Shown here: positions 2,179 to 46,865 of the stretch, in pieces | Layout: every line of letters starts with the position of its first letter | How positions within the stretch are numbered: the first letter of the stretch is position 1 | Position numbers and translations under genes: made by a program | The notes under the pieces: model-generated | Databases searched by the model: none | What the model saw: only the letters and a program-made list of their open reading frames with translations | Told to the model about the DNA's origin: nothing | DNA from: Candidatus Limnocylindrales bacterium | Lineage (GTDB): Bacteria; Chloroflexota; Limnocylindria; Limnocylindrales; CSP1-4 | DNA: 49,031 bases | NCBI GenBank assembly: GCA_036277775.1 | Contig: DASUMJ010000217.1 | Span: 1 to 49,031 of the forward strand | Direction: 5' to 3'

Positions 2179-4368
2179 GTGAGCCTCGTCTACGACTGCG
2201 ACCATCGCCACGACCGGCCGGCCGCCGAGGTCACCGCCCTCGTGGGCGGAAAGGCCGCCAACCTCGCGATCATGGCCGGCGACCTCGGGTTGCCCGTGCC
2301 GCCGGCCTTCACTGTCACGACCGAGGCCTGCCGCGAGTACCTGGCCACGGGCTGGCCGCCGAGCCTCGACATGGAGCTTCGCGAACGCATGGCCCGCATG
2401 GAGGAGTTGGCCGGGCACAGCTTCGGCGACCCCGCCGACCCACTCCTCGTGAGCGTTCGGTCCGGGGCGCCGGTGTCCATGCCCGGGATGATGGACACGA
2501 TCCTGAACCTCGGACTCAACGACGCCACGACGGCCGGCCTCGCGGCCGCTTCGGGCAGCCCCCGCTTCGCGGCCAACTGCCGCGAGCGCTTCGAGACGAT
2601 GTTCCGCGAGACCGTCGGGGTCGCCGAGATTCCCGCCGACCCGTGGCAGCAGCTTCGGGCCGCGATCGAGGCCGTCTTCCGATCGTGGAACGGCGATCGC
2701 GCCCGCGCCTACCGGCAACGCGAGGGCATCCCGGACGACCTCGGTACCGCGGTGACGGTCCAGGCCATGGTCTACGGGAATCGCTCGGTCGACTCGGCGA
2801 CCGGTGTGCTGTTCACTCGCAACCCCGCGACCGGCGAGCCCGTGCTCTACGGCGACATCCTCTTCAATGCCCAGGGCGAGGACGTCGTGGCGGGAACCCA
2901 TCCGACCGAGCCGATCTCGGTCCTCGGCGAGCGCATGCCGGCGGTGGCGCGGGAGCTTCGCGCTGCGGCGGATCGACTCGAGCGCCACCACGCGGACCTC
3001 TGCGACATCGAATTCACGATCGAGCACGGTCGCCTGTGGCTCCTCCAGTGCCGCATCGGGAAGCGGAGCCCGCGGGCGGCGCTGCGGATCGCGCGCGACA
3101 TGGCCGAGACCCCGGACTTCCCGCTGACGCGGGCCGAGGCCGTCGCGCGGGTTGCCCACCTCCTCGCCGACCCACCGCGGATCGCGATCGACCCCGTAGG
3201 CGTGACGCCGATCGCGACCGGCCTGCCCGCCTCGCCGGGCCGCGCCGGTGGCGACCTGGTCGTGACTCCCGAGGGCGCCATCGCCGCGGCGGAGGCCGGT
3301 CGCGCCGTCATCCTGGCCCGCGCGGAGACCTCGCCCGACGACGTCCACGGCATGGCCGTCGCCGCCGGCATCCTCACCTCGACCGGCGGGCTCGCCAGCC
3401 ACGCGGCGGTGGTGGCGCGGGGCTGGGCGATCCCGGCGGTGGTCGGGGCTCGTGAGGTGCGAGTCGATGGCGACGGCATCGAGGTCGCCGGGCGTCGCTT
3501 CGACCTCGGCGCGGCGATCACGGTCGACGGCGACACCGGCGAGGTCTTCGCCGGCCTCATCGACGGGGCGTACGTCGTGGTCCCCGAGGCCCCGGTCCTC
3601 CGGGCCTGGGCCGACGAGCTCGGGATTCCGGTCGGCGGCCAGCCCGCATCGCCGTCACCGGTCGCTGGGGCGAGGGAAGACGAAGCCCACGACGCGGCAC
3701 GCGACGGTTCACTCGAGTCCCCGCCCGCGCCGGGCGAGGCGGTGCTCGAGCTGCTGACCGATGACGTGCTGACGATGCTCCTCGTGAAGGGCTACACGAC
3801 GGCCGAAGGCGCAGCCGTGGCCCTCGCCACCGGTGTCGACCGAGCGACAGCGGCGATCGATGCCCTCGTGGCGGACGGGCTCGCGGAACCGGCGGCGGGC
3901 GCGTTCCGGCTGACTGCCGAAGGACGCGAACGGGCTCGCGCGGCGGTTGCCCGGACCGCCGCCGCGTGGGGTCCGGCAGCCGCCGCCGCCGCGCTCGATG
4001 CCTTCTTGGCCCTCGACCAGCGAATGAAGGCGACCGTCACCCACTGGCAGGTCCGCGAGGACGGCGACGAGCAGGTCCTGAACGACCACACCGACCCCGA
4101 GTACGACGCCGGCGTGCTCGCGGAGCTGTCCTCCCTTCACGCCGATGCGATCGAGTGGCTGGGACCGGTCGCCGAGGGCCTCCCTCGGCTCCGGACCTAC
4201 GTCGACCGCCTCGAGCGGGCGTTCGCCGCCGCCCGCGCCGGAGACGGTCGGTACGTCGCCTCGCCGCGGGTCGACAGCTATCACGGCTGCTGGTTCGAGC
4301 TCCACGAGGACCTCATCCTCCACGCCGGCCGGACGCGGGCGGACGAGGTCGCGGCCGGTCGGGCGTGA
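2179..4368 (+). CDS. Pyruvate,phosphate dikinase-like protein: ATP-grasp nucleotide domain plus phosphohistidine swivel domain, no PEP/pyruvate TIM barrel, and a winged-helix-like C-terminal region
   Basis: The start is trimmed to the in-frame GTG at 2179 (GCAGGAG 10 nt upstream), because the longer ORF overlaps the MBL gene. The N-terminus 'VYDCD..LVGGKAANLAIMAGDLGLPVPPAFTVTTEACREYL' matches PPDK_N. The swivel motif is 'TSTGGLASHAAVVARGWAIPAVVG'. The last ~230 aa ('LLVKGYTTAEGAAVALATGVDRATAAIDALVADGLAE..FRLTAEGRERA') look like a MarR-type wHTH rather than the TIM barrel. Confidence 0.85.
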   Translation: MSLVYDCDHRHDRPAAEVTALVGGKAANLAIMAGDLGLPVPPAFTVTTEACREYLATGWPPSLDMELRERMARMEELAGHSFGDPADPLLVSVRSGAPVSMPGMMDTILNLGLNDATTAGLAAASGSPRFAANCRERFETMFRETVGVAEIPADPWQQLRAAIEAVFRSWNGDRARAYRQREGIPDDLGTAVTVQAMVYGNRSVDSATGVLFTRNPATGEPVLYGDILFNAQGEDVVAGTHPTEPISVLGERMPAVARELRAAADRLERHHADLCDIEFTIEHGRLWLLQCRIGKRSPRAALRIARDMAETPDFPLTRAEAVARVAHLLADPPRIAIDPVGVTPIATGLPASPGRAGGDLVVTPEGAIAAAEAGRAVILARAETSPDDVHGMAVAAGILTSTGGLASHAAVVARGWAIPAVVGAREVRVDGDGIEVAGRRFDLGAAITVDGDTGEVFAGLIDGAYVVVPEAPVLRAWADELGIPVGGQPASPSPVAGAREDEAHDAARDGSLESPPAPGEAVLELLTDDVLTMLLVKGYTTAEGAAVALATGVDRATAAIDALVADGLAEPAAGAFRLTAEGRERARAAVARTAAAWGPAAAAAALDAFLALDQRMKATVTHWQVREDGDEQVLNDHTDPEYDAGVLAELSSLHADAIEWLGPVAEGLPRLRTYVDRLERAFAAARAGDGRYVASPRVDSYHGCWFELHEDLILHAGRTRADEVAAGRA

Positions 4369-5168
4369 ACGCGGCCACCGTGCCCCGCGGGATCGGCGTG
4401 ACGCTGGCCGACGGCCGCTTCGTCGTGACGGGTGCCTCGAGCGGACTTGGCGCGGCGATCGTCCGGCACCTCGCCCTCCTCGGCGCACCGATCGTGGCAG
4501 CGGCACGCCGGATCGACCGGCTGGAGGCCCTCGCGGCGGAGCTCGAGGCGGCCCCCGGTCGGGTCGTCCCGGTGCGGGCCGACGTCACCGACGAGGACGA
4601 CGTGGCGGCGCTCATCGAGGCGGCAGTGAAGGCCCTCGGCGGCATCGATGTCCTCGTGAACAACGCCGGCAGCGAGGTCCAGGGCCCGATCGACACGCTG
4701 CCGGACGAGGCCTTCGAGGGCATGCTGAGGGCGAACGTCCTGAGCATCGTGCGCGTGACGCGGGCCGCCCTCCCGGCGCTCCGCGAATCCCGCGGGATGG
4801 TCGTCAATCTCGGCTCGACGGTCGTCAGCCGCCCTCCTCGCAACCGCTTCGGCTACGTCGCGAGCAAGGGTGCGGTCGAGGCGATGAGCCGGGCCCTCGC
4901 GCTCGACCTCGGCCGGGAAGGCATCCGGGTCAACGTCATCCGGCCCGGGATCATCCCGTCCGAGCTCCGGGGCCTGTCCGAGGACGAGGAGCGGGCTCGT
5001 TTCGCGACCGGGGTCGCGTTCGGACGGCAGGCCCTGTCGGTGGTCGGGGATGGTCGTGACGTCGCCGAGGCAGTGGCATGGCTCGCCGGACCGGGCGGGC
5101 GCTGGATCACGGGGGCCGTGATCGACGTGGACGGGGGCTACGTGCTTGGGGCGGCTGACGCGATCTGA
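4365..5168 (+). CDS. SDR family oxidoreductase
   Basis: The GTG start overlaps the upstream stop (GTGA at 4365-4368). Motifs are 'VVTGASSGLGAAIVRHL', 'NNAG' and the YxxxK 'YVASKGAVEAM'. Confidence 0.9.
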   Translation: MNAATVPRGIGVTLADGRFVVTGASSGLGAAIVRHLALLGAPIVAAARRIDRLEALAAELEAAPGRVVPVRADVTDEDDVAALIEAAVKALGGIDVLVNNAGSEVQGPIDTLPDEAFEGMLRANVLSIVRVTRAALPALRESRGMVVNLGSTVVSRPPRNRFGYVASKGAVEAMSRALALDLGREGIRVNVIRPGIIPSELRGLSEDEERARFATGVAFGRQALSVVGDGRDVAEAVAWLAGPGGRWITGAVIDVDGGYVLGAADAI

Positions 5169-5210: not shown

Positions 5211-6266
5211 TCAGTCCGGGGCGACGATGATCTTGATGGCGCCGCTGCCTCGGTCGTTGAACGTGCTGAGGGCCTCCTGGTAGGCCGACAGCGGGAAGCG
5301 ATGGGTGATGACCTCGTTGACCCGGATCCGCCCCTGCTCCACGAGGGGCATGACGCGGCGCATCTCGCCGGCCGTCGCCCGTGATCCGACGAGCTCCAGC
5401 TCGTCGAGGACGAGCCGCTGCAGTGCGATCTCCACACCGCTGGTCGGGATGCCGACGGCAGCGCAGCGGCCGCCCCGGCGGAGCATGCGGATCGCCCAGC
5501 CGATCGTCTCGGGCGTCCCGGCGCACTCAAGCACGACGTCCGCCCCGACACCGGTCAGCTCCCGAACGGCTTGGACCGGGTCGCCGTCGGCAGTGTCCAC
5601 GGTCTCGGAGCCCATGGCGGCCGCCTTGGCAAGTCGCCCGCCACGGCCGACGACGATGACCCGTGCGGCACCCCGGACGCGGGCGGCGTCGGCTCCGAGC
5701 AGTCCGATCGCACCAGCGCCGGTGATGGCGACGGTGTCGCCCGGGGAGATCCCGCCGCGGTTCGCGACGTGGAGGGCGATCGACGCCGGGTCGACGACCG
5801 CGCCGGCCTCGAAGCTCAGGCCATCGGGGAGCCGGAAGATCGTCTTGATCCCCTGGACGACGTACGTCGCGTCGGCGCCCTGGACGGTGTGGCCGTACTG
5901 CTTGTGGAGTCCCGCCACCCCGTAGTTCTCGCAGAGGTTGTAGCGGCCCTCGACGCACTTCTGACAGGCGCCGCAGGCGTCGTGGCTGGTGCCCGCCACG
6001 CGGTCGCCCACCCGCCACCCGTACCGGTCGGCGCCGGGACCCAGCTCGACGAGCTCGCCGGCCCACTCGTGGCCCGGGGTGAACGGGAAGGCCGGCGGCC
6101 AGAAGCCCGGGTAGTCGCCGCGGATGAGATGGGCGTCGGTGCCGCAGATCGAGACCGCCCGGACCCGGGCTCGGACCTCGTTGAACCCGGGGCTCGGTAC
6201 CGGGACTTCCCGGATCTCGAAGCGGTTCGGCTCGAGGACGACGAGCGCCTCCATGGTCTCGGGCAC
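5211..6266 (-). CDS. Zinc-dependent alcohol dehydrogenase (MDR family, sorbitol/threonine-DH-like)
   Basis: It has the catalytic Zn motif 'GHEWAGELVELG', the structural Zn cysteines 'CGACQKCVEGRYNLC', and the Rossmann motif 'ITGAGAIGLLG'. Confidence 0.93.
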   Translation of the reverse strand: MPETMEALVVLEPNRFEIREVPVPSPGFNEVRARVRAVSICGTDAHLIRGDYPGFWPPAFPFTPGHEWAGELVELGPGADRYGWRVGDRVAGTSHDACGACQKCVEGRYNLCENYGVAGLHKQYGHTVQGADATYVVQGIKTIFRLPDGLSFEAGAVVDPASIALHVANRGGISPGDTVAITGAGAIGLLGADAARVRGAARVIVVGRGGRLAKAAAMGSETVDTADGDPVQAVRELTGVGADVVLECAGTPETIGWAIRMLRRGGRCAAVGIPTSGVEIALQRLVLDELELVGSRATAGEMRRVMPLVEQGRIRVNEVITHRFPLSAYQEALSTFNDRGSGAIKIIVAPD

Positions 6267-6281: not shown

Positions 6282-7169
6282 TCAGACGACGGCGACGGGG
6301 TCGACCATCGACCCGGTCGCGCCGCGGATCTTCACGGGCAGGGCGACGAACAGGAACTCGTAAAGTCGCTGGCTTGCGAGCGCCTCGAGGTCGAGGCTCT
6401 CGAGCAGGTAGATCCCGTTCTCGATGAGCAGCAGCGTGTGGACCGGCTGGGGGTTGCCGGTGGGGCCGGGATCCGGGGCCGGCTGGACCTCGTAGGTCTC
6501 GGTGTCCGTCCCGGTCGCGACGATCCCGCGTTCCAGGAGCCAGCGCGCGGCGGAGATGTCCGGGCCGGGCGTCCGGTGGGCGGCCATCCGCTCGGCGTCG
6601 GGCCACAGCGACATGTAGCCGGTCCGGATGACCACGACGTCCCATGGCCGGACCTCGACACCTTCCGCGTCCGCGATCGCCTCCAGCTCCGCCGCGTCGA
6701 TCGGGGCGCCCCTCGGCAGGCAGGCCAGGCCCCGGTGGCCCGCCGCGTCGAGGAGCACGCCCCGGGTGAAGAACGGCGGCAGCGTCGAGGCGTCGAGGTG
6801 GTTCGGGCCGAAGTCCGTCAGGTGGTCGTCTGCCCGTCCCCCGCCGAACCAGTGCATGTCCTCGCCGACGGTCATGTGGGCGAGCGCGTCGACGTGAGCG
6901 CCGGAGTGGGACGTCGCCATGACGTACTCGGCCATGTAGCCGAGACCCGCGTCGTTGACTGGTCCCCATGGGCGGGCGCCGGTGACGCGGATGCCGCGCG
7001 GGGTCCGGGCGTTGAGGACCTGGAACGGCGGGTGCCCGGGGAAGAGCGGCATGCCGGGGAACCGCGCCGCGGCGAGCGAGATCGTCCGGCCCTCGCGGAC
7101 GAGACCCGCGGCGCGCACGACCTGGTCGGCGGGGAGTCGGCCGATCGGGCCGATGTCCGGGGCGGTCAT
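6282..7169 (-). CDS. Cyclase family protein (kynurenine formamidase / isatin hydrolase-like metal amidohydrolase)
   Basis: It has the HxGxHxDxxxH motif 'HSGAHVDALAHM'. The start overlaps the stop of the Mo subunit gene (ATGA at 7166-7169). Confidence 0.88.
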   Translation of the reverse strand: MTAPDIGPIGRLPADQVVRAAGLVREGRTISLAAARFPGMPLFPGHPPFQVLNARTPRGIRVTGARPWGPVNDAGLGYMAEYVMATSHSGAHVDALAHMTVGEDMHWFGGGRADDHLTDFGPNHLDASTLPPFFTRGVLLDAAGHRGLACLPRGAPIDAAELEAIADAEGVEVRPWDVVVIRTGYMSLWPDAERMAAHRTPGPDISAARWLLERGIVATGTDTETYEVQPAPDPGPTGNPQPVHTLLLIENGIYLLESLDLEALASQRLYEFLFVALPVKIRGATGSMVDPVAVV

Positions 7170-9457
7170 GCGTCGTCCTCCGTGTGCTCCTCCGACCCGG
7201 ACGCGGCGCCGGAGTCGTCCCGATCGCGCTCCCGGAGTGCCCGCCAGACGCGCTCCGGCGTCAGCGGCAGGTCACGAATCCTGATCCCCGCTGCATCACG
7301 GACCGCGCCTGCCACGGCGGCCGAGACGCACAGCAGCGCGCCCTCGCTCATGCCCTTGGAGCCGTACGGCCCGGGGCCATCCTCGTTCTCGACGAAGTCA
7401 CTCACCATCTCGACGGGCAGGTCCATGCTCGTGGGAATGCGATAGTCGATCGCCCCGAGGTTCCGGATCCGGCCGGCGTCGTCGAGGATGTAGTGCTCCA
7501 TCAGGGTGTGTCCCAGGCCCTGGATCGCGGCGCCCTCGTCCTGCATCCGGACCTGCAGCGGGTTGATCGCCTTGCCCACGTCGGACACCGTCACGTGGCG
7601 GGTGAGCGTCACGTCGCCGGTCGCCTCGTCGACCTCGGCCTCGATGGCCGTGCAGTTGAACTCGAAGAACGCCGGTGCCCCGCCGAGCGGGTGTTCCGGC
7701 GCGGCGTCGAGCCGTGTCTCGCCGACCCCGATGAGCTCCCCGCCGAGCCGGCCCAGGCCGGGCCCGAGGAGCTCGCGGATCGGGATCTCCCGATCGGGCA
7801 GGACGGCGACACCTCGCTCAACCCGGATCGCCGCCTCGTCCACGCCGTGGACCCGGGCGGCGATCGCCCGGAGCCGCGCCTGAATGTCGCGGCAGGCGGC
7901 AAGGACGGCATTGCCCATCAGGACCGTGGAGCGGCTGGCCGAGGTCTGCTGGTCGTACGGAACGACCGCCGTGTCGCCCATGACGACCGTCACCCAGTCC
8001 AGCGGCGCGCCGAGCTCGTCGCCGGCGATCTGGGCGAGGACCGTCCGGGCACCCTGGCCCATGTCGGAGGTCCCGGCGTAGACCACGACGCTGCCGTCGG
8101 CGAGCAGCCGGACGGTCGAGTACGAGAGGCCCGTCGTGGGGCCGGACTTGATGCCGACGGCGATCCCGCGGCCGCGGCCGCGAACCGCGGGCCGGTCCCA
8201 GCCCACGAGCTCGGCGGCCCGCCGGACCACCTGCGCCCAGTCGCCGTCGGCCGGCGTGTCCCAGGGAATGAACGCCTCCCCCTTCCGGGCGAGGTTCATG
8301 AGCCGGATCTCCAGCCGATCGATGCCGAGACGGAGGGCGGCCTCGTCGAGGTTCGACTCGACCGCCCAGTTGACCTGGGGGTTGCCGAATCCACGGAAGG
8401 CCGTGGACGGCACGGTGTGGGACAGGATCGGCCGGGCGACGACCCGCGCGGACGGCATCCGGTAGGGCCCCGCGGCAAGGTAGCTGCCCTTGCCCACGAC
8501 CCGGTCGGCGATGTCGACGTACGCCCCGATGAGGTAGTCGGCCCTGACGTCCTGGAAGCAGAGGGTGCCGTCGAGCCTGAGGCCCGTGCGGACGTGGACC
8601 TCGGCCGCCGCGCGGCGGACGGCCAGGAACGTCTCCTCGAGGCTCAGCACGAGCCGGACCGGCCGGCCGGCCCGGAGGGCCATGAGCGCGACGAGCGGCT
8701 CGTACTTGGCGTGCTGCTTGCCGCCGAAGCCGCCGCCTGGGTCAGGGGCGAAGACACGGACCCGCGAGAGCGGCAGGCCGGTCAGCCCGGCGATGATCCG
8801 CTGCAGCCAATTCGGGTGCTGGATCGTGCTCCAGACGGCGATCCCGCCGTCGTCCGGCGCCGCGATGAAGGCGTGCGGCTCGATCGCGAAGTGGGTCACC
8901 ATCGGGAACGTCCAGGTCCCCTCGACGACGACGTCGGCCGGCGTCGAGTCGACGTCGCCCCAGCCGACCCGGTGTTCGCGGAGCACGTTCGTCCCGGCGA
9001 GCGGGTCGCCCGGTCGCAGGGACGGATCCTGGACGAGCGGCGCGCCGGGGGCGAGGGCCGCGGCGACGCTCGTCACCGCCGGCAGCTCCTCGTAACGGAC
9101 CGTCACGAGCGCGGCCGCGGCCTCCGCCGCGTCGCGGGACTCGGCGGCCACGGCCGCAACCGGTTGCCCGTGGTAGGTGATCTCGCCGTCGGCGAGGACG
9201 GGCCGGTCCCGGTACTGGGGCCCGAACCGCGGCATCGGTGCGGGCAGGTCGGCCGCGCTCATCACGAGGTGGACACCCGGCACCGCCCGGGCTGCAGCCG
9301 CGTCGATCCCGAGCACCCGTGCGTGGGCGACGGGAAGCGTGACGAGCTTCGCGTGGAGCTCGCCTGGGAGGTGGATGTCAGCGACGTACGCCTGGCCGCC
9401 CGTCACCCGGCCGATGCCGCCGACTCGGTTCGGCGAGCCTCCGACGCGGGCCGTCAT
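7166..9457 (-). CDS. Xanthine dehydrogenase family, molybdopterin-binding large subunit
   Basis: 763 aa. The N-terminus 'NRVGGIGRVTGGQAYVADI' is typical of aldehyde oxidase/XDH a/b hammerhead domains. The three-subunit gene order is conserved, and the start overlaps the FeS subunit stop (ATGA at 9454-9457). Confidence 0.93.
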   Translation of the reverse strand: MTARVGGSPNRVGGIGRVTGGQAYVADIHLPGELHAKLVTLPVAHARVLGIDAAAARAVPGVHLVMSAADLPAPMPRFGPQYRDRPVLADGEITYHGQPVAAVAAESRDAAEAAAALVTVRYEELPAVTSVAAALAPGAPLVQDPSLRPGDPLAGTNVLREHRVGWGDVDSTPADVVVEGTWTFPMVTHFAIEPHAFIAAPDDGGIAVWSTIQHPNWLQRIIAGLTGLPLSRVRVFAPDPGGGFGGKQHAKYEPLVALMALRAGRPVRLVLSLEETFLAVRRAAAEVHVRTGLRLDGTLCFQDVRADYLIGAYVDIADRVVGKGSYLAAGPYRMPSARVVARPILSHTVPSTAFRGFGNPQVNWAVESNLDEAALRLGIDRLEIRLMNLARKGEAFIPWDTPADGDWAQVVRRAAELVGWDRPAVRGRGRGIAVGIKSGPTTGLSYSTVRLLADGSVVVYAGTSDMGQGARTVLAQIAGDELGAPLDWVTVVMGDTAVVPYDQQTSASRSTVLMGNAVLAACRDIQARLRAIAARVHGVDEAAIRVERGVAVLPDREIPIRELLGPGLGRLGGELIGVGETRLDAAPEHPLGGAPAFFEFNCTAIEAEVDEATGDVTLTRHVTVSDVGKAINPLQVRMQDEGAAIQGLGHTLMEHYILDDAGRIRNLGAIDYRIPTSMDLPVEMVSDFVENEDGPGPYGSKGMSEGALLCVSAAVAGAVRDAAGIRIRDLPLTPERVWRALRERDRDDSGAASGSEEHTEDDA

Positions 9458-9984
9458 CGGGCTGCGTCCGGATCGCTGGCCGGCCCGTTTAGGAGCGTGT
9501 CATCAGCATGCCCGGCGGCGGCCAGCACGGCGCCCACGATCTGCTCGTAGCCGGCGCAGCGACAGAGATTGCCGGCGAGGCCCTCCTGGACCTCCGCGAC
9601 CGTCGGGTCGGCGATCCGGTCGAGGAGGTCCTGGGCCGCCATCAGTTGCCCAGGGATGCAGAAACCGCATTGGGCCGCGCCGCGGTCGAGGAAGGCCTGC
9701 TGAAGCCGGCTCAGCCTGGCCCCGTCCGCCAGGCCCTCGACCGTCGTCACGCTTCCGCCGTCGGCCTCGACCGCGAGGACGAGGCACGAGTCCACGATCC
9801 GGCCGTCCAGGCTGACGGTGCAGGCCCCGCACTCTCCGACGAGGCAGCACTCCTTCGTTCCGGTCAAGGCGAGATCGTCGCGGAGGACCTCAAGGAGCGT
9901 ATGGTGGGCGGCCACTTCGACGGCCCGACCCCGGCCGTTGACCGTCAGCTCGATCGCCACGCGGGTTTCTCCGGGCGCCGTCAC
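9454..9984 (-). CDS. (2Fe-2S)-binding small subunit of the Mo-hydroxylase
   Basis: Trimmed to the GTG at 9984, which overlaps the FAD subunit stop (GTGA). Two 2Fe-2S motifs are present: 'CLVGECGACTV' and 'CGFCIPG...CRCAGY'. Confidence 0.93.
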   Translation of the reverse strand: MTAPGETRVAIELTVNGRGRAVEVAAHHTLLEVLRDDLALTGTKECCLVGECGACTVSLDGRIVDSCLVLAVEADGGSVTTVEGLADGARLSRLQQAFLDRGAAQCGFCIPGQLMAAQDLLDRIADPTVAEVQEGLAGNLCRCAGYEQIVGAVLAAAGHADDTLLNGPASDPDAAR

Positions 9985-10859
9985 GGCCGCGCCCCTCCCC
10001 CGCCCGCCGCGAGCCGCGCGACCGCGGTCGCGAGCGCCCGGCGCGCCAGGACCCCGAGCATCGCGAGGCGGTACTCGGGGCTTGCCCGCATCGATCGGGG
10101 CGAGGGGCTGGCTCCTGCGAGCAGCTGCTCGAGGACGACGTCGCGGGCGGCGGCCGTCGCCGTCGGATCGGCCAGCGTGCCGCTCGGGTCGACGCCGAGC
10201 ACCGGGCGGGGCCCGAGGCTGCCGTACGCAAGGCGCGTGACCCCGGCCCCGTCCACCGAGCAGGCGAGCGTGACCGAGGCGAGATCGTGGCCCCGCCGGC
10301 GGGTCCGGCGGACGTGCGTCGATCCGAGGGGGCCGGCGGGCAGCGGCAGCTCGATGCTCGTGACGAGCTCCCCGGGACGGAGGGTCGTCTCGCCGGATCG
10401 GACGAAGAGCTCGTCGATCGGGACCCGCCGCGCACCGTCCGGGCCCACCGCCACGATCTCGGCGCCGAAGACGAGAAGGGCCGGTGCAGTATCGGCGGCC
10501 GGCGAGGCGTTGCAGAGGTTCCCGGCCAGCGTCGCCCGGTTCCTGATCTGAACGGAGCCGACGACCATCGCCGCTTCGGCCAGGGCCGTGAACCGCTGCC
10601 GGATCCGCTCGTCCGCGCCGATGTCGGTCATGACCGCCGTCGCCGGCACCACGAGCCGACCGCCGATCTCGCGGATGGCCGGGTCGAGCTCCGGGATCCG
10701 CTTCAGGTCGACGACGACGGCCGCGCGGGCCGAGCCGTCGCGGAGGCGGATGATGAGATCCGTTCCGCCGGCCAGGACTCGGGCATCGGGCCCGTGGGTG
10801 GCGAGCAGCGCCACGGCCTCGGCGATGCTGGCGGGGCGGGCGTAGCTGAACGGTCGCAT
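9981..10859 (-). CDS. FAD-binding medium subunit of the Mo-hydroxylase (CoxM/XdhB-like)
   Basis: 'MRPFSYARPASIAEAVALL...RVLAGGTDLIIRLR' is a typical FAD_binding_5 N-terminus. The start shares 1 nt with the upstream gene's stop (TGATG at 10859). Confidence 0.9.
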   Translation of the reverse strand: MRPFSYARPASIAEAVALLATHGPDARVLAGGTDLIIRLRDGSARAAVVVDLKRIPELDPAIREIGGRLVVPATAVMTDIGADERIRQRFTALAEAAMVVGSVQIRNRATLAGNLCNASPAADTAPALLVFGAEIVAVGPDGARRVPIDELFVRSGETTLRPGELVTSIELPLPAGPLGSTHVRRTRRRGHDLASVTLACSVDGAGVTRLAYGSLGPRPVLGVDPSGTLADPTATAAARDVVLEQLLAGASPSPRSMRASPEYRLAMLGVLARRALATAVARLAAGGGGARP

Positions 10860-11761
10860 CAGCCGGCCGAGAGGACCTTCTCGACCTCGTCGAGCAGCAC
10901 CTGCGGCGTGGCCGCCCGGATGAAGAAGAACGGCCGCTCACAGAAGCGGGCGACGAACTCCGCCCGTCGCCGCCGGAGGGCGTCGGTGTCGAGGAGGGGC
11001 ATGACGTGGCCGGGGGCCAGCAGCTCGTTCGTCAGGAAGTAGTTCTGGAGGGAGTGCAGGAACTGGAACTGGGCCTCGAATGGGATGAGCCGGTTGGTGG
11101 CGGGGTCGAAGTTGCCATCGATGGCGGGCACGACCACGAGGTCGATCTCGGGCGTCCCGTCGTAGAAGCCCCAACTCGGCATGTCGCCCCAGAACTTCTC
11201 CACGCCTCGGTTCGGTGCGGCCTTGTCGGACCGCTCGGTCCCCTCCGTCCGCTTGACGAGGAACGGCTCGACCGAGCCCATGACGGCCCGTCCCGCCTCG
11301 TCGATCACGGTCGTCTCGGATGCGACCTGGAGGCCGCCCCGGAGCCCGGTCTCGATCAGGCCCATGCTCTTGCCGTGGTTGGACTCGCCGCCGAGGAAGA
11401 GGATCGTTCGGCCCTGGTAGTGGACCGCCGCGCTGTGCGATGGGTGCAGGCCCGCGGCCTCCATCCGAAGAGCCAGGACCGCCACGATCACCTTCTGGAT
11501 CGGGCCCGCCGGCCAGTCGCCGCTGAACCTCACGACCCCCGCGTCGTATGTGATGTCCTTCGGGCCGTCGACGAGCCACACGATGTCCGGCGTGGGAAGG
11601 GTCACCTCCGGGGAGATCCGGACGTCGGCAAGTCGGTAGTTGAGGAAGCTGAGGTCGTCGAGGACGTGGGCCCTCGGCGGCCCGCCGACGACGTCGACCC
11701 GGAGGCGGGCCGCGCCCGCCGAGAACTCTTCGGTGAGCTGGGGCTGGACCTGGGCGTTCAT
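10859..11761 (-). CDS. Hypothetical P-loop protein, HPr kinase/phosphorylase C-terminal-domain-like
   Basis: Start set to ATG 11761 (AAAGGAA RBS). 'ILFLGGESNHGKSMGLIETGLRGGLQVASETTVID' parallels the HprK Walker-A region (GxSGxGKSExALELxxRGHxLxADD). No other recognisable domain. Confidence 0.65.
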   Translation of the reverse strand: MNAQVQPQLTEEFSAGAARLRVDVVGGPPRAHVLDDLSFLNYRLADVRISPEVTLPTPDIVWLVDGPKDITYDAGVVRFSGDWPAGPIQKVIVAVLALRMEAAGLHPSHSAAVHYQGRTILFLGGESNHGKSMGLIETGLRGGLQVASETTVIDEAGRAVMGSVEPFLVKRTEGTERSDKAAPNRGVEKFWGDMPSWGFYDGTPEIDLVVVPAIDGNFDPATNRLIPFEAQFQFLHSLQNYFLTNELLAPGHVMPLLDTDALRRRRAEFVARFCERPFFFIRAATPQVLLDEVEKVLSAG

Positions 11762-11783: not shown

Positions 11784-12527
11784 TCAGGCGGGCTGCCTGG
11801 TGAGCTGGGGCAGGGACGCCGCATCGCCGTCGCCGCGCGCGTCCGATGGGGGCGTTACGGCGTCGCCGGTCCGGCTGGTCGCCCAGTGGCGGGCGAGTCC
11901 CGCCGCCGCGTCCTGGAAATGGCGGACGATGACATCGGCCGCCCGGCCCGCCTCGCGGCGGCGAAGGGTCTCCAGGATCACGAGGTGGCCGTCGGCGATC
12001 TGCCGGCGATCGGCGCCGGAGGCGCCGATGGTGATGTAGGTGCGGGAGAACGGCTCCAGCGTCCGCCAGACGCGGACAAGCGTAGCGTTGCCGGCGGCCT
12101 CGACGATCCGCCCGTGGAACGCGGCATCCGCGGTGGCTTCCGCGTAGACGTCGCCCGCGTCGGCCGCGTCCTGCATCCGTCCGATATCGACGGCGAATGC
12201 CTCGAGGTCGTCGTCGCCGAGCCGGGGGATTGCCAGCTCGATCGCGAGCGACTCGAGCGCCGCGCGGACCGCGAAGGCCTCGAGGAGCTCGTCCGCCGAT
12301 GGGCGGCGGACGCGAGCTCCCCGAAATGCCGCGGTCACGACAAGGCCAAGACCCTCCAGGTCGCGGAGCGCCTCCCGGACCGGCGCCTGGCTCGTGCCGA
12401 GCTCCCGGGCGACCCGGGTCTCGACGATCCGGGCGCCCGGCGGGTAGCGGCCGTCGAGGATCGCCTGGAGGAGGCGGTCCTTGACCTGGTCGCTGAGGAC
12501 GCTCCGCGAAACAGCCTGGCGAGTCAT
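11784..12527 (-). CDS. GntR family transcriptional regulator (FadR-type, FCD effector domain)
   Basis: Trimmed to ATG 12527. The wHTH is 'RIVETRVARELGTSQAPVREALRDLEGLGLVV', followed by a helical C-terminal domain. The gene is embedded in the catabolic operon. Confidence 0.9.
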   Translation of the reverse strand: MTRQAVSRSVLSDQVKDRLLQAILDGRYPPGARIVETRVARELGTSQAPVREALRDLEGLGLVVTAAFRGARVRRPSADELLEAFAVRAALESLAIELAIPRLGDDDLEAFAVDIGRMQDAADAGDVYAEATADAAFHGRIVEAAGNATLVRVWRTLEPFSRTYITIGASGADRRQIADGHLVILETLRRREAGRAADVIVRHFQDAAAGLARHWATSRTGDAVTPPSDARGDGDAASLPQLTRQPA

Positions 12528-12537
12528 CGTCGCGACG

Positions 12538-14316
12538 TCAGTCGCGCATCCCGACCGGGGCCACCGTCGCCACGGCGGCAAGGATCTCGACGACCCCGGT
12601 GCTCCCGTCCACGCGGATCTTGTCGCCGGTCTTGATCCGTGTCGTCGCGACGGACGTGCCGACGACGGCCGGGATTCCGTACTCGCGGGCCAGGACGGCC
12701 GGGTGCGAGACGGTTCCGCCGGCGTCCGTGACGACCGCCGTGATCTTCCCGTACAGAACCTGCCAGGCCGGGTTCGTCATCTCGCAGACGAGGACCTCGC
12801 CGACCTGGAGGCTGTCGAACTCGGCCTCGGACATGACGACGCGGGCCGTGCCCTCGACGACGCCGGGCGAGCCGGCGATGCCCTTGACCTTGCCGAACTC
12901 CTGTTCCTTCGAGCGGTAGAACTTGTCCGGGAAGCCCCACAGGTTCAGGTACGGGAAGGCGAGCTGGGTGGCGGTCACGGTTCCGACCCAGTCCTTCGGC
13001 CGGATCTTCTCGGCCTCGGCCCGCTTGGCCCGGGCTGCGGCCACGATCGCCCGGCCGTCGATGCCGGTCGGGTTGCCGATGAAGGCCCGCAGCTCGTTGT
13101 AGTGGAAGAGGATCACGTCGTCCGGGCGATCGAGAACGCCCATCTCGACGAGCTTCTCGCCGATGGCCATGAGGACGAGCCGGACGTGGGCGTTGGCGCC
13201 CTGGTCGATGTAGAAGTGATGATCCGGGGTGAGCGGGGCCATCTTCAGGTTGATCTCGTTGGCCGCACGCATCTCCTCGAGCGCCTCGCCCTCGAGACCC
13301 TCGAGGATCTCGACCGAGGCCGCGTCGATGTCGGCCTTGAGCTTCGCGACTGCAGCCGGGTAGTCGTAGCCCGACGCGTACTGATCGCGGACGAGCTGGA
13401 CGACCGGGGTCATGTCCTCCCGGAAGCTCGGGAAGATGAACTCGTGGCTCCAGACGGCGTGCCAGCCGAACTCCTTCTGGTACGGCACGACCCGCTCGTC
13501 GATGAACCGCCGCCCACGCTCGCTCGCCTGGAGCCGCGGGACGATCTCGGTCGCGGACGGGCTGTCGAAGGCCTTCGCCAGCTCGGCGTCGCCGCGGACC
13601 TCCTCCTGCATCTGCCAGAGGGACCGGATCTTGTCCCAGTTGCGGTCGTTGGCCGAGCTCTGGAGCCGGCCCAGCAGGACCTCGTCGATCTTGCCGTGGG
13701 TCTTCTCCATGACCGCCCGGAGGTTGAGCGTCGCGCTGAGCTGCGCGAAGTTCAGCATCCAGTGGATCTTCCAGTGGCGGTCGTGCATGTCGATGGCGTC
13801 CTCGAGGAGGACGGCCGTGTCGGCCAGGCTGAGCTCGGCCTTCTTGTCGAGCATGCCCTCGATGTAGTCGAAGTTCCGCTGCATCTCGGGCACGAACCGC
13901 GTCCGCCACCAGTGGACGAAGTTGTGGCCGTAGACGGGCAGGACCGCGCCCAGGTACGCCCCGATCTTGCCTGCGTAGCCGGCGTCGTCGCCCTGGGGAA
14001 CGATCGCGCGCGTCGCCAGGTCGTACTCCTGCGTCACGAGCTCGAGCCCGGCTTCGGCCGGGATCGCCGCGGTGTACAGGTAGCCGTTGATCTTCTTGTA
14101 GATCCAGTCCGTCGCGAACGGCGTCCCGAAGCGGCGGAACATGTGGTCGCAGGACAGCCACCAGCCGCCGATGTCCTCGTACATCGGGCTGAGCGGCTTC
14201 GGGCAGTGGAGGTCGTCGTAGACCCAGAAGAGCAACTTCTCGGTCTCCGACGTCCAGGCGATGGGGAATTCCTCGGTCCCGAGGTACTGGTCGAGGATCT
14301 CTTCCTTCAATGGCAC
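12538..14316 (-). CDS. PEP-utilising-enzyme family protein: large helical N-terminal domain plus C-terminal phosphohistidine swivel domain (PpsA / rifampin-phosphotransferase-like, no ATP-grasp)
   Basis: Start set to GTG 14316 (GAAGGAG 9 nt upstream). The C-terminal 'GSPGVVEGTARVV...VLVCEMTNPAW...TDAGGTVSHPAVLAREYGIPAVVG' is the mobile His domain. The N-terminal ~480 aa have no nucleotide-binding motif. Confidence 0.85.
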   Translation of the reverse strand: MPLKEEILDQYLGTEEFPIAWTSETEKLLFWVYDDLHCPKPLSPMYEDIGGWWLSCDHMFRRFGTPFATDWIYKKINGYLYTAAIPAEAGLELVTQEYDLATRAIVPQGDDAGYAGKIGAYLGAVLPVYGHNFVHWWRTRFVPEMQRNFDYIEGMLDKKAELSLADTAVLLEDAIDMHDRHWKIHWMLNFAQLSATLNLRAVMEKTHGKIDEVLLGRLQSSANDRNWDKIRSLWQMQEEVRGDAELAKAFDSPSATEIVPRLQASERGRRFIDERVVPYQKEFGWHAVWSHEFIFPSFREDMTPVVQLVRDQYASGYDYPAAVAKLKADIDAASVEILEGLEGEALEEMRAANEINLKMAPLTPDHHFYIDQGANAHVRLVLMAIGEKLVEMGVLDRPDDVILFHYNELRAFIGNPTGIDGRAIVAAARAKRAEAEKIRPKDWVGTVTATQLAFPYLNLWGFPDKFYRSKEQEFGKVKGIAGSPGVVEGTARVVMSEAEFDSLQVGEVLVCEMTNPAWQVLYGKITAVVTDAGGTVSHPAVLAREYGIPAVVGTSVATTRIKTGDKIRVDGSTGVVEILAAVATVAPVGMRD

Positions 14317-14419
14317 CGCAGTCTTCTCCTTCGGCTCGTGGCTCGCGTCGCCGGCCGGGCGACGTCTTCCGGCTCGTCCCTCGTCCGCGGCCCTGGCCGC
14401 GGCCCGCATCCGCCTCCCT

Positions 14420-15676
14420 TCAGCACCTCCCGGCCACGGCCGCCGGCAGGGGTTCGGCCCACACGCGATAGAGGTCGTCGAGGCGCTCGGCCATCGCGCG
14501 CCCGAACGCCGGGTCGTTGATATCGGTGGCCACCTCGACCACCTCGATGCCCGGGCGAAGCCCTGCCTTCAACTCCCGGGTCAGGGCTGCGTCGGCAGCC
14601 GGATCGTGGAACGGCCGCCCGGGGGCATCGAGCATCGACAGCCCGTCGCCTGGGACGAACACGACCAGCGGGCCGGTCGCCTCGTTCAGCTTCCGGGCCA
14701 GCACGCGACCGAGCTCCGCGCACTCCGCCTCGCTGGTCCGCATGAGCGTGACCGCGGCGTTGTGCTCCACGAGGGTGCGGCCGCGGAACCGGCGCGGGAC
14801 GGTGTCGAGCGGCCCGAAGTTCACCATGTCGAGGGCGCCGAGAGATACCACCTGCGGCAGTCCGAGTGTGCCGGCCGCTTCGAGCCGGTCGGGGCCGGCG
14901 GAGCAGACCCCGCCGACGAGGTCGTCGGCCAGCTCGCTCGTGGTCACGTCGAGGACACCGGTAATGACGCCTGAACGGATGAGGTCCTCCATGGCGCGTC
15001 CGCCCGTGCCGGTCGCATGGAAGACGAGGACCTCGTAGCCGCGCGACTCGAGGACCTCGCGGGCGGCGGTCACGCAGGGTGTCGTCACGCCGAACATCGT
15101 CGCCCCGATGCATGGTCGGCCGTCGGGTCGGTCGTCGGCTCGCGAGGCTTGCCGGGCCATGCCGGCGGTGGCGGCGGCAGCGTTGGCGAGGACCCGGCGC
15201 GAAATTCGGTTGAGCCCGGCGATGTCGACGATCGAGTGCATGAGCGTGACGTCACTCGTGCCGACATACGGCCGCGTGTCGCCGGAGGCCATCGTCGAGA
15301 CGAGGAGCTTCGGGACACCGATCGGGAGGGCGCGCATGGCCGCGGCCACGAGCGCGGTGCCGCCGGAGCCGCCGAGCCCGGCGATGGCGTCGAGTCGGCC
15401 TTCAGCATGGAGCTGCCGGACGACCTCGATCGCACCGCGTGTCATCGACGCAATCGCGTGCCCCCGGTCGCCGCCGGCAGCGAGGGCGGTCCGGTCGGCC
15501 CCGCCGGCGGCTGCCACGACGTCCGACGAGACGTCCGCAAGCGATGACGGTTCGAGGACACCCGCGTCCACGAGGATGGTGTCGCATCCGGCCCTGCGAA
15601 CCTCGTCCCGCACGAAGCGGAACTCGGGACCCTTGGTATCGAGCGTGCCCAGGAGGACGACCGTGGCCACGTGCAT
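14420..15676 (-). CDS. UPF0261 / Tm-1-like ATP-binding domain protein
   Basis: 'MHVATVVLLGTLDTKGPEFRFVRDEV' matches the family N-terminus (GTxDTKG). An alternative GTG start at 15670 lies 6 nt after GGAG. The 817-aa ORF in the track is an artefactual extension that runs antisense through the transaldolase gene. Confidence 0.85.
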   Translation of the reverse strand: MHVATVVLLGTLDTKGPEFRFVRDEVRRAGCDTILVDAGVLEPSSLADVSSDVVAAAGGADRTALAAGGDRGHAIASMTRGAIEVVRQLHAEGRLDAIAGLGGSGGTALVAAAMRALPIGVPKLLVSTMASGDTRPYVGTSDVTLMHSIVDIAGLNRISRRVLANAAAATAGMARQASRADDRPDGRPCIGATMFGVTTPCVTAAREVLESRGYEVLVFHATGTGGRAMEDLIRSGVITGVLDVTTSELADDLVGGVCSAGPDRLEAAGTLGLPQVVSLGALDMVNFGPLDTVPRRFRGRTLVEHNAAVTLMRTSEAECAELGRVLARKLNEATGPLVVFVPGDGLSMLDAPGRPFHDPAADAALTRELKAGLRPGIEVVEVATDINDPAFGRAMAERLDDLYRVWAEPLPAAVAGRC

Positions 15677-22121: not shown

Positions 22122-22490
22122 ATGATCAAGCGCGTGGCCAGATCCGAGTCCGAGGTGGTTCCCCTCCCCGGCCGGACCTGGCACTCCTACTTCGGCCCTC
22201 GGAACAGCGCGGCGCGGAACGTCTCGATGGGCGTCTCTGTGTTCCCGCCTGGGTCCCGCCCCGCAGGCCACGTCCACCCGGCCGAGGAGGAGACGATCTA
22301 CTGTGCCGCGGGCCGCGGCCGGATCGTGACCCCCGACGGCACGGCCGAGGTCGAGCCGGGCGTCGTCGTCCATGTCTCGCCCGGAACCTTCCACGCGACC
22401 GAGAGCGACGGGCCCGGCGATCTCGAGCTCGTGTGCGTCTTCTCGCCGCCGGTCGTGCCCGGCTCGTACGAGGCGAAGCCGGCGTCGTGA
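22122..22490 (+). CDS. Cupin domain protein
   Basis: GAGGTGA RBS. The cupin motifs are 'GHVHPAEEETIYCAAGRG' and 'VHVSPGTFH'. Confidence 0.85.
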   Translation: MIKRVARSESEVVPLPGRTWHSYFGPRNSAARNVSMGVSVFPPGSRPAGHVHPAEEETIYCAAGRGRIVTPDGTAEVEPGVVVHVSPGTFHATESDGPGDLELVCVFSPPVVPGSYEAKPAS

Positions 22491-23392
22491 CGACCGCGAT
22501 CGGCGCCGCGCCGCCCGACCTCGGCCACCTCCGGGAGATGGCCCGGCGGATCCGGGTCGAGGTGATCCGATCCGTCAACCACGCCCGGGCCGGCCACATC
22601 GGCGGGCCCCTCTCGGCCGCGGACATCCTCGCGGTCCTGTACTTCCACGTGCTCCGGATCCGTCCCGACCACCCGGCCTGGCCGGACCGCGATCGATTCA
22701 TCCTGTCGAAGGGCCACTCGTCGATCGGCCTGTACGCGGCGATGGCGCTGCGGGGCTACTTCCCGGTCGAGGAGCTGCTGACGTTCGACGCTGCGCGCTC
22801 GCGGCTCCAGGGCCATCCCGACATGACCCGACTCCCGGGGCTCGACATGTCGACCGGCTCGCTCGGGATGGGTATCTCGGCGGCCATGGGGATCGCCCTC
22901 GGGGCCCGACTCACCGGTCGCGACGTCCGGGCGTTCGTCATGCTCGGCGACGGCGAGTGCCAGGAAGGGGAGGTCTGGGAGGCCGCCATGTCCGCGCCCC
23001 GGTACGGCCTCGACAACCTCATCGCGATCGTCGACGCGAATCGGCTCCAGCAGTACGGCTGGCCCGGCGATGGCCCCGACGGCCGGATCCCACCGCAGCG
23101 CGAGGGCGAGCTCGCGGCGAAGTGGGCGGCCTTCGGCTGGCGGGTCCTCGAGGTCGACGGCCATGACGTCGGCGAACTCGTCCGGATCCTCGGGCAGGCC
23201 GTTGCCGGCGACGGCCGGCCATGTGTCGTCATCGCCCACACCGTGAAGGGCAAGGGCGTGTCGTTCATGGAGGGCCACTACTTCTGGCACACCCGGGCGA
23301 TCAAGCCTGAGGAGCTCTCCGCGGCGATGGCCGAGCTCGGGGAGCCGCCGCCGGACGTCGGCGGCCCGGCGACGACCGAGGCCGGGCGATGA
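22487..23392 (+). CDS. Transketolase, N-terminal (TPP-binding) subunit
   Basis: The GTG start overlaps the cupin stop (GTGA). Motifs are 'AGHIGGPLSAADILAVLYF' and 'GDGECQEGEVWEAA'. Confidence 0.92.
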   Translation: MTTAIGAAPPDLGHLREMARRIRVEVIRSVNHARAGHIGGPLSAADILAVLYFHVLRIRPDHPAWPDRDRFILSKGHSSIGLYAAMALRGYFPVEELLTFDAARSRLQGHPDMTRLPGLDMSTGSLGMGISAAMGIALGARLTGRDVRAFVMLGDGECQEGEVWEAAMSAPRYGLDNLIAIVDANRLQQYGWPGDGPDGRIPPQREGELAAKWAAFGWRVLEVDGHDVGELVRILGQAVAGDGRPCVVIAHTVKGKGVSFMEGHYFWHTRAIKPEELSAAMAELGEPPPDVGGPATTEAGR

Positions 23393-28889: not shown

Positions 28890-28908
28890 CTCGGGACAGG
28901 CGGGAGCG

Positions 28909-35257: not shown

Positions 35258-35528
35258 CGGTCGGCCGCCGTCGAGCCGGACCCGGAGGTGGGTCGCAGCA
35301 GTCGGGCCGGCAGCCCTTCCGTGGCTCGATGATGGGCGGCGGATCGGGCCCGGCCACGAGCCGTCGGTCCGCAACGACCGGGCCAAACGGCATCGAGCAG
35401 GTGGCCGAACGGCCGGGGCGGCCGGGCGCATGGGCGGCCCGGCGCCGCGGCCCCGCGGCGGCGCCCTCGCTTCATGGCGCCTAGACTCGGTTCGGCAGGT
35501 CCCCGGCCTCCATGACCAGGAGGATGAC

Positions 35529-45118: not shown

Positions 45119-45269
45119 GGTCGGCCCATCGTACCGGCCGGCGTCCAGCGACGGGCTTTCGCGGCATCGGGATCTGTCGCGGCCGCGGCGCGCGGAGGGT
45201 CCCGCACACCGAGACGGCAGATCCACCACGCGCAACCCCCGGGTGCGGGCTCGGACGGCTGCCGCCACC

Positions 45270-46802: not shown

Positions 46803-46865
46803 GCGGTCCCCGGAATCGGGACGAATCGCCCGTAACCGACGCCGGGTGCGTGGCGTCGCATCACC

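Follow-up and report, generated by a model that had tools for sequence, protein, structure and literature searches.

A Truncated Dikinase Fused to a Winged Helix and Helical Bundle Module

We analyzed a 49,031-nt stretch of DNA (hereafter, the window) from a Candidatus Limnocylindrales bacterium (assembly GCA_036277775.1, contig DASUMJ010000217.1), with a focus on one open reading frame (ORF) of 729 aa on its forward strand (2179-4368). This ORF, the target, encodes a truncated pyruvate, phosphate dikinase (PPDK) of the VadK type fused to a module of the Rv1126c type, both named after separate proteins of Mycobacterium tuberculosis (Mtb). The target protein probably loads phosphate from ATP in an ATP-dependent small-molecule dikinase that is made up of three parts and belongs to a molybdenum (Mo)-hydroxylase catabolic cluster. 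The basis of this reading is the architecture, fold class, family membership, conservation, synteny, and gene fusions described below.

In a Pfam scan of the target, only PPDK_N and the PEP-utilizers mobile domain (PEP, phosphoenolpyruvate) were matched. PPDK_N (PF01326, E 2e-47) marks a PPDK-type ATP-grasp nucleotide-binding domain at residues ~1-340 (2179-3198, + strand), and PF00391 (E 4e-19, residues 377-454) falls within a swivel phosphohistidine domain at residues ~345-461 (3211-3561, + strand). The catalytic motif GGLASHAAVVAR begins at residue 403, which makes His408 the phospho-accepting histidine (codon 3400-3402, motif context GGLASHAAVVARG), and the motif GGLASHAAV[VI]AR is kept in 120 of 120 full-length homologues. 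The ATP-grasp domain aligns to residues 11-155 and 178-~385 of C. symbiosum PPDK, and residues 345-461 align to the central domain of PDB 2fm4. Pfam, the PDB alignments, and the motif thus confirmed the preliminary description of this ORF, made from the letters alone, as far as it recognized PPDK nucleotide-binding and swivel domains with a catalytic histidine.

The likeness to PPDK then ends. PPDK chains in the PDB cover only residues 15-480 of the target (1ggo, E 7e-119), and the PPDK alignment stops at residues 480-499. The stretch at 3562-3729 (+ strand) contains what is left of the helix that connects the PPDK domains (PEAPVLRAWADELGIP) and, after it, a disordered linker rich in Pro and Ala, as judged from the end of the PPDK alignment and from low values of the predicted local distance difference test (pLDDT). 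Pfam found no match to the PEP-utilizers_C TIM barrel in the target. The target is ~45% identical to canonical PPDK (EC 2.7.9.1) over the ATP-grasp and swivel domains and shares its catalytic His motif. Without the PEP/pyruvate TIM barrel at its C-terminus, however, it cannot make PEP. The NCBIfam scores agree with a truncated enzyme. The target reached 499.4 bits with the canonical PPDK model TIGR01828, under its equivalog cutoff of 843.45, whereas with the truncated-PPDK model NF004531/PRK05878 it scored 487.5 bits (residues 17-478), over the curated cutoff of 456. The ATP-grasp is PPDK-like, with 499 bits for TIGR01828 versus 85 bits for the PEP synthase (PEP_synth) model.

What, then, stands in the place of the TIM barrel? 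The C-terminal 266 aa gave zero Pfam matches, even at E<=10, and the module is covered by no Pfam or NCBIfam model. We predicted the structure of residues 481-729 with AlphaFold2 from an alignment of 121 homologues. The model (pLDDT 88.8; predicted template modelling score, pTM, 0.80) consists of a disordered linker (residues ~481-517, pLDDT under 50-60), a winged helix-turn-helix (wHTH), and a helical bundle. The wHTH, at residues 518-579 (3730-3915, + strand), has three helices, a beta-wing, and an acidic recognition helix, and was also recognized by Foldseek and by a profile match. The bundle, at residues 580-729 (3916-4365, + strand), is built of long helices with one beta-hairpin and, modelled alone, reached a pLDDT of 94.5 and a pTM of 0.86. 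A degenerate TIM barrel was ruled out by this confident all-alpha/wHTH model without beta/alpha repeats, together with the missing PEP-utilizers_C match. The proposal that the barrel had been replaced by a wHTH and a helical module, rather than having degenerated, held up in Pfam, AlphaFold2, and Foldseek.

Searches of the PDB with the module found matches to its first half and only generic ones to its second. Against the PDB, Foldseek returned nothing for the whole module at E<=1e-3. The best local matches (60-75 columns, root-mean-square deviation 1.5-3 A) were the wHTHs of IdeR/MntR-type and MarR-type regulators and the dimerisation domains of O-methyltransferases, and weak whole-length matches were to GntR/FCD proteins (E 0.03, TM 0.2). 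The bundle alone matched only generic four-helix bundles of the PDB (OspC/Vsp and Tar-like 4HB; E >=0.23, TM <=0.48). In a profile search of PDB sequences, the IdeR wHTH (E 1.4e-4), a MarR protein (E 0.015), and otherwise only the PPDK linker were matched; nothing matched the bundle. None of the curated HTH models of Pfam and NCBIfam matched the target module at threshold, and sub-threshold matches occurred in only a few relatives. The earlier label of a "MarR-type" wHTH was therefore right about the winged helix and too specific about MarR, as the weak best matches are of the DtxR/IdeR/MntR type.

The conservation of the module is concentrated in the bundle. The mean frequency of the top residue was 0.62 in the wHTH, 0.74 in the bundle, and 0.87 in the last 45 residues. 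Eighteen bundle residues are invariant (K617, Q624, N635, H637, D639, Y674, R677, S695, D699, H702, W705, F706, E707, H709, E710, R720, E723, and R728), a pattern that looks like a functional site rather than a DNA-reading head. In the homologue alignment, the recognition helix has a median net charge of -3 and no conserved basic residue; the residues that it does conserve are Asp, Leu, Val, Ala, and Gly. Because this helix is acidic and is less conserved than the bundle, it is doubtful that the module binds DNA.

Integrity and Spread of the Fusion

The target has a GTG start with a ribosome-binding site, GGCAGGAG, ~11 nt upstream. In this window of ~72% GC, the GC content at third codon positions ranged from 0.74 to 0.96 over the entire ORF, and codon-position GC showed an unchanged frame where the PPDK homology ends. 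A full-length search recovered at least 120 clusters of homologues of 711-750 aa at 66-71% identity and 100% coverage, and the module motif SYHxxWFELHE is kept in 119 of 120 full-length homologues. In a scan of one genome per species, we found at least 502 module relatives, the best 80 of which came from metagenome-assembled genomes of Limnocylindria/Chloroflexota, Dormibacterota, and Acidimicrobiia. The two parts are fused in frame at ~72 of 82 species-level loci and split into different frames at 4. A profile search covering 1.84 billion representatives yielded at least 1,952 module-containing clusters (at 50% identity), 524 of them at E<=1e-30; among the best 149 were 56 stand-alone proteins of 190-230 aa, 18 fusions of 700-800 aa, and 4 proteins of more than 1,000 aa. 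A search of a plasmid collection found the fused form on no plasmid.

Could the ORF be an assembly or frameshift artefact, or a decaying ppdK pseudogene that reads through into a neighbouring regulator gene? We consider this barely conceivable. The parts do lie in separate frames at a few related loci (L001, L002, L066, and L074), mostly in long-read metagenome bins, but the coding statistics of the target are uniform through the junction, more than 120 independent full-length homologues of 711-750 aa exist, the great majority of the species-level loci are fused in frame, and both the catalytic and the module motifs are kept. Uniform codon statistics and conserved in-frame fusions thus ruled out a frameshift or assembly artefact, a risk that the preliminary description had itself raised, in favour of a single uninterrupted frame. 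The architecture that it had proposed was borne out, with all quoted motifs at their given positions.

At the four split loci, the VadK part and the module are frame-shifted relative to each other; at L001, the N-terminal part was missed entirely by the gene caller, and three of the four contigs carry names in the style of long-read metagenome bins. Some seemingly stand-alone modules of Chloroflexota (e.g., P0019 and P0118) may likewise be frameshift artefacts rather than true splits. The names in the databases follow one part or the other. Wherever the source names the full-length homologues (~half of the clusters), it calls them "pyruvate, phosphate dikinase"; JGI and NCBI label fused members, even isolated module fragments, as "pyruvate, orthophosphate dikinase", and stand-alone modules are labelled "MarR family transcriptional regulator". 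As functional statements, the two names are probably incorrect.

A Natural VadK-Rv1126c Fusion

The N-terminal part has a studied relative in Mtb. Rv1127c, long annotated as PpdK, lacks the PEP/pyruvate domain and has been renamed VadK (Pascoe et al., EMBO Rep 2026, PMC13400623). It is autophosphorylated at His422 with ATP/Mg and is needed for virulence and for growth on propionate/cholesterol (PMC13400623). Its "operonic partner", Rv1126c, raises the solubility of VadK and needs 2 M NaCl to be washed off; the same paper treats Rv1126c solely as a solubility aid, without an assigned fold or function (PMC13400623). The published model is one of protein-level regulation, as methylcitrate enzymes were pulled down with VadK, and the loss of VadK left the transcription of methylcitrate genes unchanged in Mtb (PMC13400623). 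The order of the Mtb genes is EphC-Rv1125-Rv1126c-ppdK (supplement of PMC13400623).

A search with a mycobacterial stand-alone module retrieved 201-aa proteins of slow-growing mycobacteria. In M. basiliense, the gene of the 201-aa module overlaps by 4 nt the stop of a gene encoding PPDK_N and PEP-utilizers domains and is followed by Rv1125-like and EphC-like genes. Because this gene order equals that of EphC-Rv1125-Rv1126c-ppdK in Mtb, we took the 201-aa protein to be the Rv1126c orthologue, and this orthologue, identified by synteny, was used in the comparison instead of H37Rv Rv1126c. Its alignment with the target module spans the full 200 aa at 36% identity (E 5e-31) and takes in both the DSYHxxWFELHE motif and the C-terminus, and the M. 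basiliense VadK orthologue was 43% identical to the N-terminal part of the target. We therefore conclude that the target is a natural VadK-Rv1126c fusion of proteins that are separate in many other bacteria.

The target resembles the Mtb pair in that both have a truncated PPDK that keeps the ATP-grasp and the swivel with its catalytic His but lacks a PEP/pyruvate domain, and in that the VadK-then-Rv1126c gene order is the domain order of the target. On the other hand, the two parts are a single polypeptide in the target, and its gene lies in a catabolic cluster with a Mo hydroxylase and an H-type dikinase component (described below) instead of in a methylcitrate-cycle neighbourhood. No methylcitrate-cycle genes (prpR, prpD, or prpC) were present among the annotated genes of the window. 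The host differs as well, as it belongs to an uncultured soil lineage of high GC content, with Limnocylindria/Chloroflexota metagenome-assembled genomes as its best relatives.

The H-Type Partner Protein

The window encodes a second swivel-domain protein, a 623-aa H-type dikinase component (12538-14409, - strand; PF00391, E 2e-22). Its swivel domain is C-terminal (PF00391 at residues 536-605, GGTVSHPAVLAREYGIP), with His569 in the motif GGTVSHPAV, and it has no ATP-grasp (PPDK_N). Residues 410-610 matched residues 681-866 of rifampin phosphotransferase (RPH; PDB 5fbs/5hv1), and partial NCBIfam matches to PRK08296, RedH, and RPH point to a PigC/RedH-like substrate domain. The swivel region also matched the NF004520/PRK05865 model ("sugar epimerase family protein", 854 aa; model residues 654-840). 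The PRK05865 family is probably mycobacterial and Rv2047c-like. If so, Mtb encodes an ATP-grasp-less swivel protein, a possible client of VadK.

How constant is the association of this protein with the target? We defined a well-flanked locus as one with at least 9 kb on both sides (45 of the 82 related loci). The H-type gene was present at 36 of these 45 loci (80%), usually in the same operon orientation. Furthermore, triple fusions of H-type, VadK, and module parts (1230-1256 aa) occurred on independent contigs, and one of them, P0269, keeps both catalytic histidines. In a Solirubrobacteraceae locus (L088), an H-type and module fusion is directly followed by a separate VadK-like gene. In Mycolicibacterium, in Rhodococcus pyridinivorans (in a cre-like cluster with cytochrome P450 and aldehyde dehydrogenase, ALDH), and in Diaphorobacter, the three parts are separate adjacent genes. 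All fusion permutations of the three parts are found in nature, and no second ATP-grasp gene was seen in the trio clusters examined. In every fusion, the module is C-terminal to a swivel domain, at the position that the TIM barrel has in PPDK, and whether the module is present co-varies with whether the loader has a swivel. The trio occurs in unrelated catabolic clusters of the P450/ALDH, Rieske, and Mo-hydroxylase types.

The conserved synteny and the natural gene fusions substantiate the earlier proposal that the ATP-grasp-less swivel protein is the functional partner of the target. The accompanying claim, that the two belong to the same regulon, found no such support; in the window, their genes lie in convergent transcription units.

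Proteins of the DUF7064/DUF7065 families (~300-330 aa) adjoin the trio at three loci (L083, 7042-7989; L087, 7053-7967; L089, 5753-6736), in Mycolicibacterium, in Diaphorobacter, and in a metagenomic Rieske/P450 cluster. The window has no such protein, and in the non-Mo versions of the trio it could be an additional accessory component.

Comparison with Known Dikinase Systems

HpeHI, CreHI, and PpsAB are two-component small-molecule dikinases (Dexter et al., JBC 2025, PMC12167813). Their H component, with an RIF-binding-like domain and a swivel His, receives a pyrophosphoryl group in the ATP site of the I component, a separate protein, and then phosphorylates a phenolic substrate (PMC12167813). 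The I component is an ATP-grasp-only protein of ~340 aa; the H component has its swivel His loaded directly at this site, without the need for a third protein in vitro (PMC12167813). The preliminary description had instead supposed that the phospho-His of the target passes its phosphate to the partner. The H-type protein of the window has the H-component architecture of PpsAB (phenylphosphate synthase), CreHI, HpeHI, and AcvAB, without an ATP-grasp. The aromatic catabolic context, the separate ATP-grasp protein in the same cluster, and a phosphohistidine dikinase chemistry, predicted for the target, are shared as well. In contrast, the I components of those systems are PEP-synthase-like, whereas the target is PPDK-derived and carries its own swivel His and the module. 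The cluster contains no stand-alone ~340-aa PEP-synthase-like I component; its only ATP-grasp is that of the target.

A parallel in gene content is the 3-hydroxypyridine (3hpd) cluster of Ensifer adhaerens HP1, in which orf9 encodes a "pyruvate-phosphate dikinase" and orf10 a "PEP-utilizing mobile subunit" (bioRxiv 10.1101/2020.01.08.898148). Both adjoin a GntR gene and a multi-subunit Mo hydroxylase, and the conversion that depends on this hydroxylase requires both of them (Wang et al. 2020, bioRxiv 10.1101/2020.01.08.898148). The plasmid with this cluster was not among the hits listed in the search of the plasmid collection. The window likewise has the molybdenum-cofactor (MoCo), 2Fe-2S, and FAD subunits of a xanthine-dehydrogenase (XDH)-family enzyme, a GntR gene, and PPDK-like and PEP-utilizing-mobile genes. 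Among the cluster genes scanned, we found neither hpdBCDE of the maleamate pathway nor a gene for a recognisable SRPBCC subunit, and the window cluster has instead short-chain dehydrogenases/reductases (SDRs), a metallo-beta-lactamase-fold (MBL) protein, a Zn-dependent alcohol dehydrogenase (Zn-ADH), and a PF04199 cyclase. Because these accessory genes differ, the substrate of the window cluster is probably different from that of 3hpd.

RPH, PigC, and RedH are also PEP-utilizing-family enzymes in which another acceptor-binding domain replaces the PEP/pyruvate TIM barrel. Unlike the target, they combine a single swivel with a large helical substrate domain in one chain, and they lack the wHTH and bundle module, for which Foldseek also found nothing similar in RPH.

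A Proposed Three-Part Small-Molecule Dikinase and Its Alternatives

In the three-part dikinase that we favour, the target would supply the sole ATP-grasp site, whose PPDK type would bind ATP. His408 would accept phosphate by ATP-dependent autophosphorylation, as demonstrated only for Mtb VadK. The phosphoryl group would end on His569 of the H-type swivel and pass from there to a hydroxylated (hetero)aromatic substrate handled by the adjacent Mo hydroxylase. Since the module co-varies with the loader swivel and sits where the TIM barrel was, it most likely offers the swivel a docking or third site, whether as a scaffold for the H component, as a phosphoryl relay, or as a regulatory phosphate/metal site, and is most likely not a DNA-binding regulator. 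The 3hpd cluster lends support to the three-part dikinase, as essential "PPDK" and "PEP-utilizing mobile" proteins stand there beside a Mo hydroxylase.

Several observations weigh against this reading. Two-component dikinases need only an ATP-grasp I component, so the second swivel domain and the module of the target are left without an explained role, and HpeI-type ATP-grasps are PEP-synthase-like whereas that of the target is PPDK-like (PMC12167813). Nine of the 45 well-flanked loci have no nearby H-type gene, and the Mtb-type loci have none within 8 kb of VadK/Rv1126c. The published model for Mtb VadK is protein-level regulation of methylcitrate enzymes, not small-molecule phosphorylation (PMC13400623). 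Finally, the later genes of the 3-hydroxypyridine pathway (hpdBCDE) were missing from the cluster genes scanned.

A more daring version of the three-part scheme makes the bundle a new phosphoryl-relay or third-site domain, either HPt-like with His637, His702, or His709 as the acceptor or with a metal/phosphate site, and makes Mtb VadK/Rv1126c the ATP-loading half of a small-molecule dikinase. We regard this as a tentative possibility. The phosphoryl group of ATP would then pass first to the swivel His of the VadK part, next to the module, then to the swivel His of the H-type protein, and finally to the small-molecule substrate, and the H-type partner of Mtb VadK/Rv1126c would be encoded elsewhere in the genome. 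A possible candidate for that partner is the Rv2047c-like PRK05865 family, whose model matched the swivel region of the H-type protein in the window.

Could the target instead be a regulatory histidine kinase, as proposed for Mtb VadK? It would then be an ATP/energy sensor that autophosphorylates His408 and modulates pathway enzymes such as the Mo hydroxylase through its module, by protein-protein contact or protein phosphorylation and without phosphorylating a small molecule. Mtb VadK does autophosphorylate and pulls down methylcitrate enzymes without a transcriptional effect, the target belongs to the same NCBIfam family, VadK binds Rv1126c tightly, and at most loci the target homologue is translationally coupled to, or lies immediately 3' of, the Mo-hydroxylase genes. 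We nevertheless consider this unlikely, as it leaves unexplained why an H-type protein with an intact catalytic His accompanies the target at 80% of the loci and is fused to it in several lineages; moreover, the presence of the trio in unrelated catabolic clusters suggests a generic chemical step rather than the regulation of one enzyme. It is quite unlikely, too, that the helical bundle itself is the acceptor-substrate domain that replaced the TIM barrel, so that a small anionic or metal-bound substrate would be phosphorylated from His408 independently of the H-type protein. The module does occupy the exact position of the barrel in every fusion, the bundle is its most conserved part, and the 18 invariant residues are mostly polar (among them 3 His, 4 Arg/Lys, and 5 Asp/Glu) and spread over several helices, as in a buried active site. 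But neither Foldseek nor the profile search of the PDB found fold or sequence similarity of the bundle to any enzyme, Rv1126c behaves as a tightly bound subunit, a substrate domain is already available in the H-type protein, and L088 has the module joined to the swivel of the H-type part instead of that of VadK.

The wHTH raises a further question: could the module be a DNA-binding one-component regulator (MarR- or DtxR-like) of the catabolic cluster, switched by the phospho-His state of the dikinase? The fold is indeed that of a wHTH, with DtxR/IdeR/MntR and MarR regulators as the best matches; annotation pipelines call stand-alone members "MarR family" regulators, and in DtxR/MntR regulators a helical metal-binding domain likewise follows the wHTH. 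However, the recognition helix is acidic and none of its conserved residues is basic, conservation is lower in the wHTH than in the bundle, which is the opposite of typical regulators, no Pfam or NCBIfam HTH model reached threshold, the cluster already has a GntR/FCD regulator, and the transcription of methylcitrate genes in Mtb was unaffected by the loss of VadK. We therefore regard a DNA-binding role as very improbable.

The Gene Cluster and Other Genes of the Window

Directly upstream of the target and in the same orientation lies the gene of the MBL protein (1220-2131, + strand), preceded by that of an SDR (350-1201, + strand; both by Pfam). Downstream, the GTG start of a second SDR oxidoreductase gene (4365-5168, + strand; Pfam adh_short) overlaps the TGA stop of the target (GTGA). 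The genes that follow are all on the - strand. By Pfam, they encode the Zn-ADH (5211-6266) and the PF04199 cyclase/formamidase-like protein (6282-7169) and, by Pfam and NCBIfam, the three subunits of the xanthine-dehydrogenase-family molybdenum hydroxylase, namely, the MoCo large subunit (7166-9457), the 2Fe-2S subunit (9454-9984), and the FAD subunit (9981-10859). The gene of a conserved 300-aa protein (10859-11761) stands between the FAD subunit gene and that of a GntR/FCD-family transcription regulator (11784-12581; Pfam GntR and FCD), and the H-type gene comes next. A gene of the UPF0261 (Tm-1-like) family (14420-15676) adjoins the H-type gene, and a UPF0261 homologue flanks the VadK-module gene at ~10 of the 82 related loci.

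The 300-aa protein matched nothing in Pfam, NCBIfam, or the PDB sequences. Possibly, it is a fourth subunit or a maturation factor, by analogy of position with the SRPBCC subunit HpdA3 of the 3hpd hydroxylase. No homology was found between it and the DUF7064/7065 proteins that accompany the trio elsewhere.

Much of this arrangement is conserved. At the well-flanked loci, Mo-hydroxylase subunits were present in 78-87%, MBL/SDR in 73%, the 300-aa protein in 69%, the GntR/FCD regulator in 62%, and the Zn-ADH and PF04199 cyclase in 31%. The gene of the 300-aa protein always has the GntR gene on one side and the FAD subunit gene on the other. Across the 82 loci, the conserved order is H-type, GntR, the 300-aa protein, FAD, 2Fe-2S, MoCo, (cyclase, Zn-ADH), and VadK-module, mostly on one strand.

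Elsewhere in the window, two genes at 22487-24342 (+ strand) encode the N-terminal and the C-terminal half of a split transketolase, and 26559-30183 (+ strand) encodes a 2-oxoacid dehydrogenase with a fused E1, together with its E2 acyltransferase. A [NiFe]-hydrogenase large subunit gene lies at 32343-34046 (- strand), and the neighbouring minus-strand ORFs are probably the small subunit and maturation genes. At 35430-39136 (+ strand), the genes of a phosphoketolase (XFP) and, directly after it, an acetate kinase make up a compact pair for the phosphoketolase pathway. At 44907-48221 (+ strand), the gene of a 631-aa protein of the MttB family (trimethylamine methyltransferase-like) precedes that of a 451-aa bacterial serpin.

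Implications

The domain parts, the VadK/Rv1126c pairing, and the two-component dikinases are already published. In the literature that we searched, we found no recognition of Rv1126c as a conserved family of wHTH and novel bundle and no report of an Rv1126c-type module fused to VadK in a large clade. Nor did we find a report of a trio of VadK, Rv1126c, and an H-type protein with all fusion permutations, or of such a trio embedded in diverse catabolic clusters.

The module defines a large uncurated family, with a confident model of a new helical bundle and with no Pfam/NCBIfam model or PDB relative, and it flags a systematic mis-annotation, as thousands of proteins are named "pyruvate, phosphate dikinase" or "MarR family regulator". 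The proposed system would add to the two-component small-molecule dikinases a variant that has three parts and a loader derived from PPDK, spanning Mo-hydroxylase, P450, and Rieske-oxygenase catabolic clusters in Chloroflexota, Actinomycetota, and Proteobacteria. For the VadK/Rv1126c pair, the fusions provide a "Rosetta stone" comparative-genomic framework that is relevant to M. tuberculosis virulence: together with the synteny, they predict that the pair works with a swivel protein of the RPH/HpeH type.

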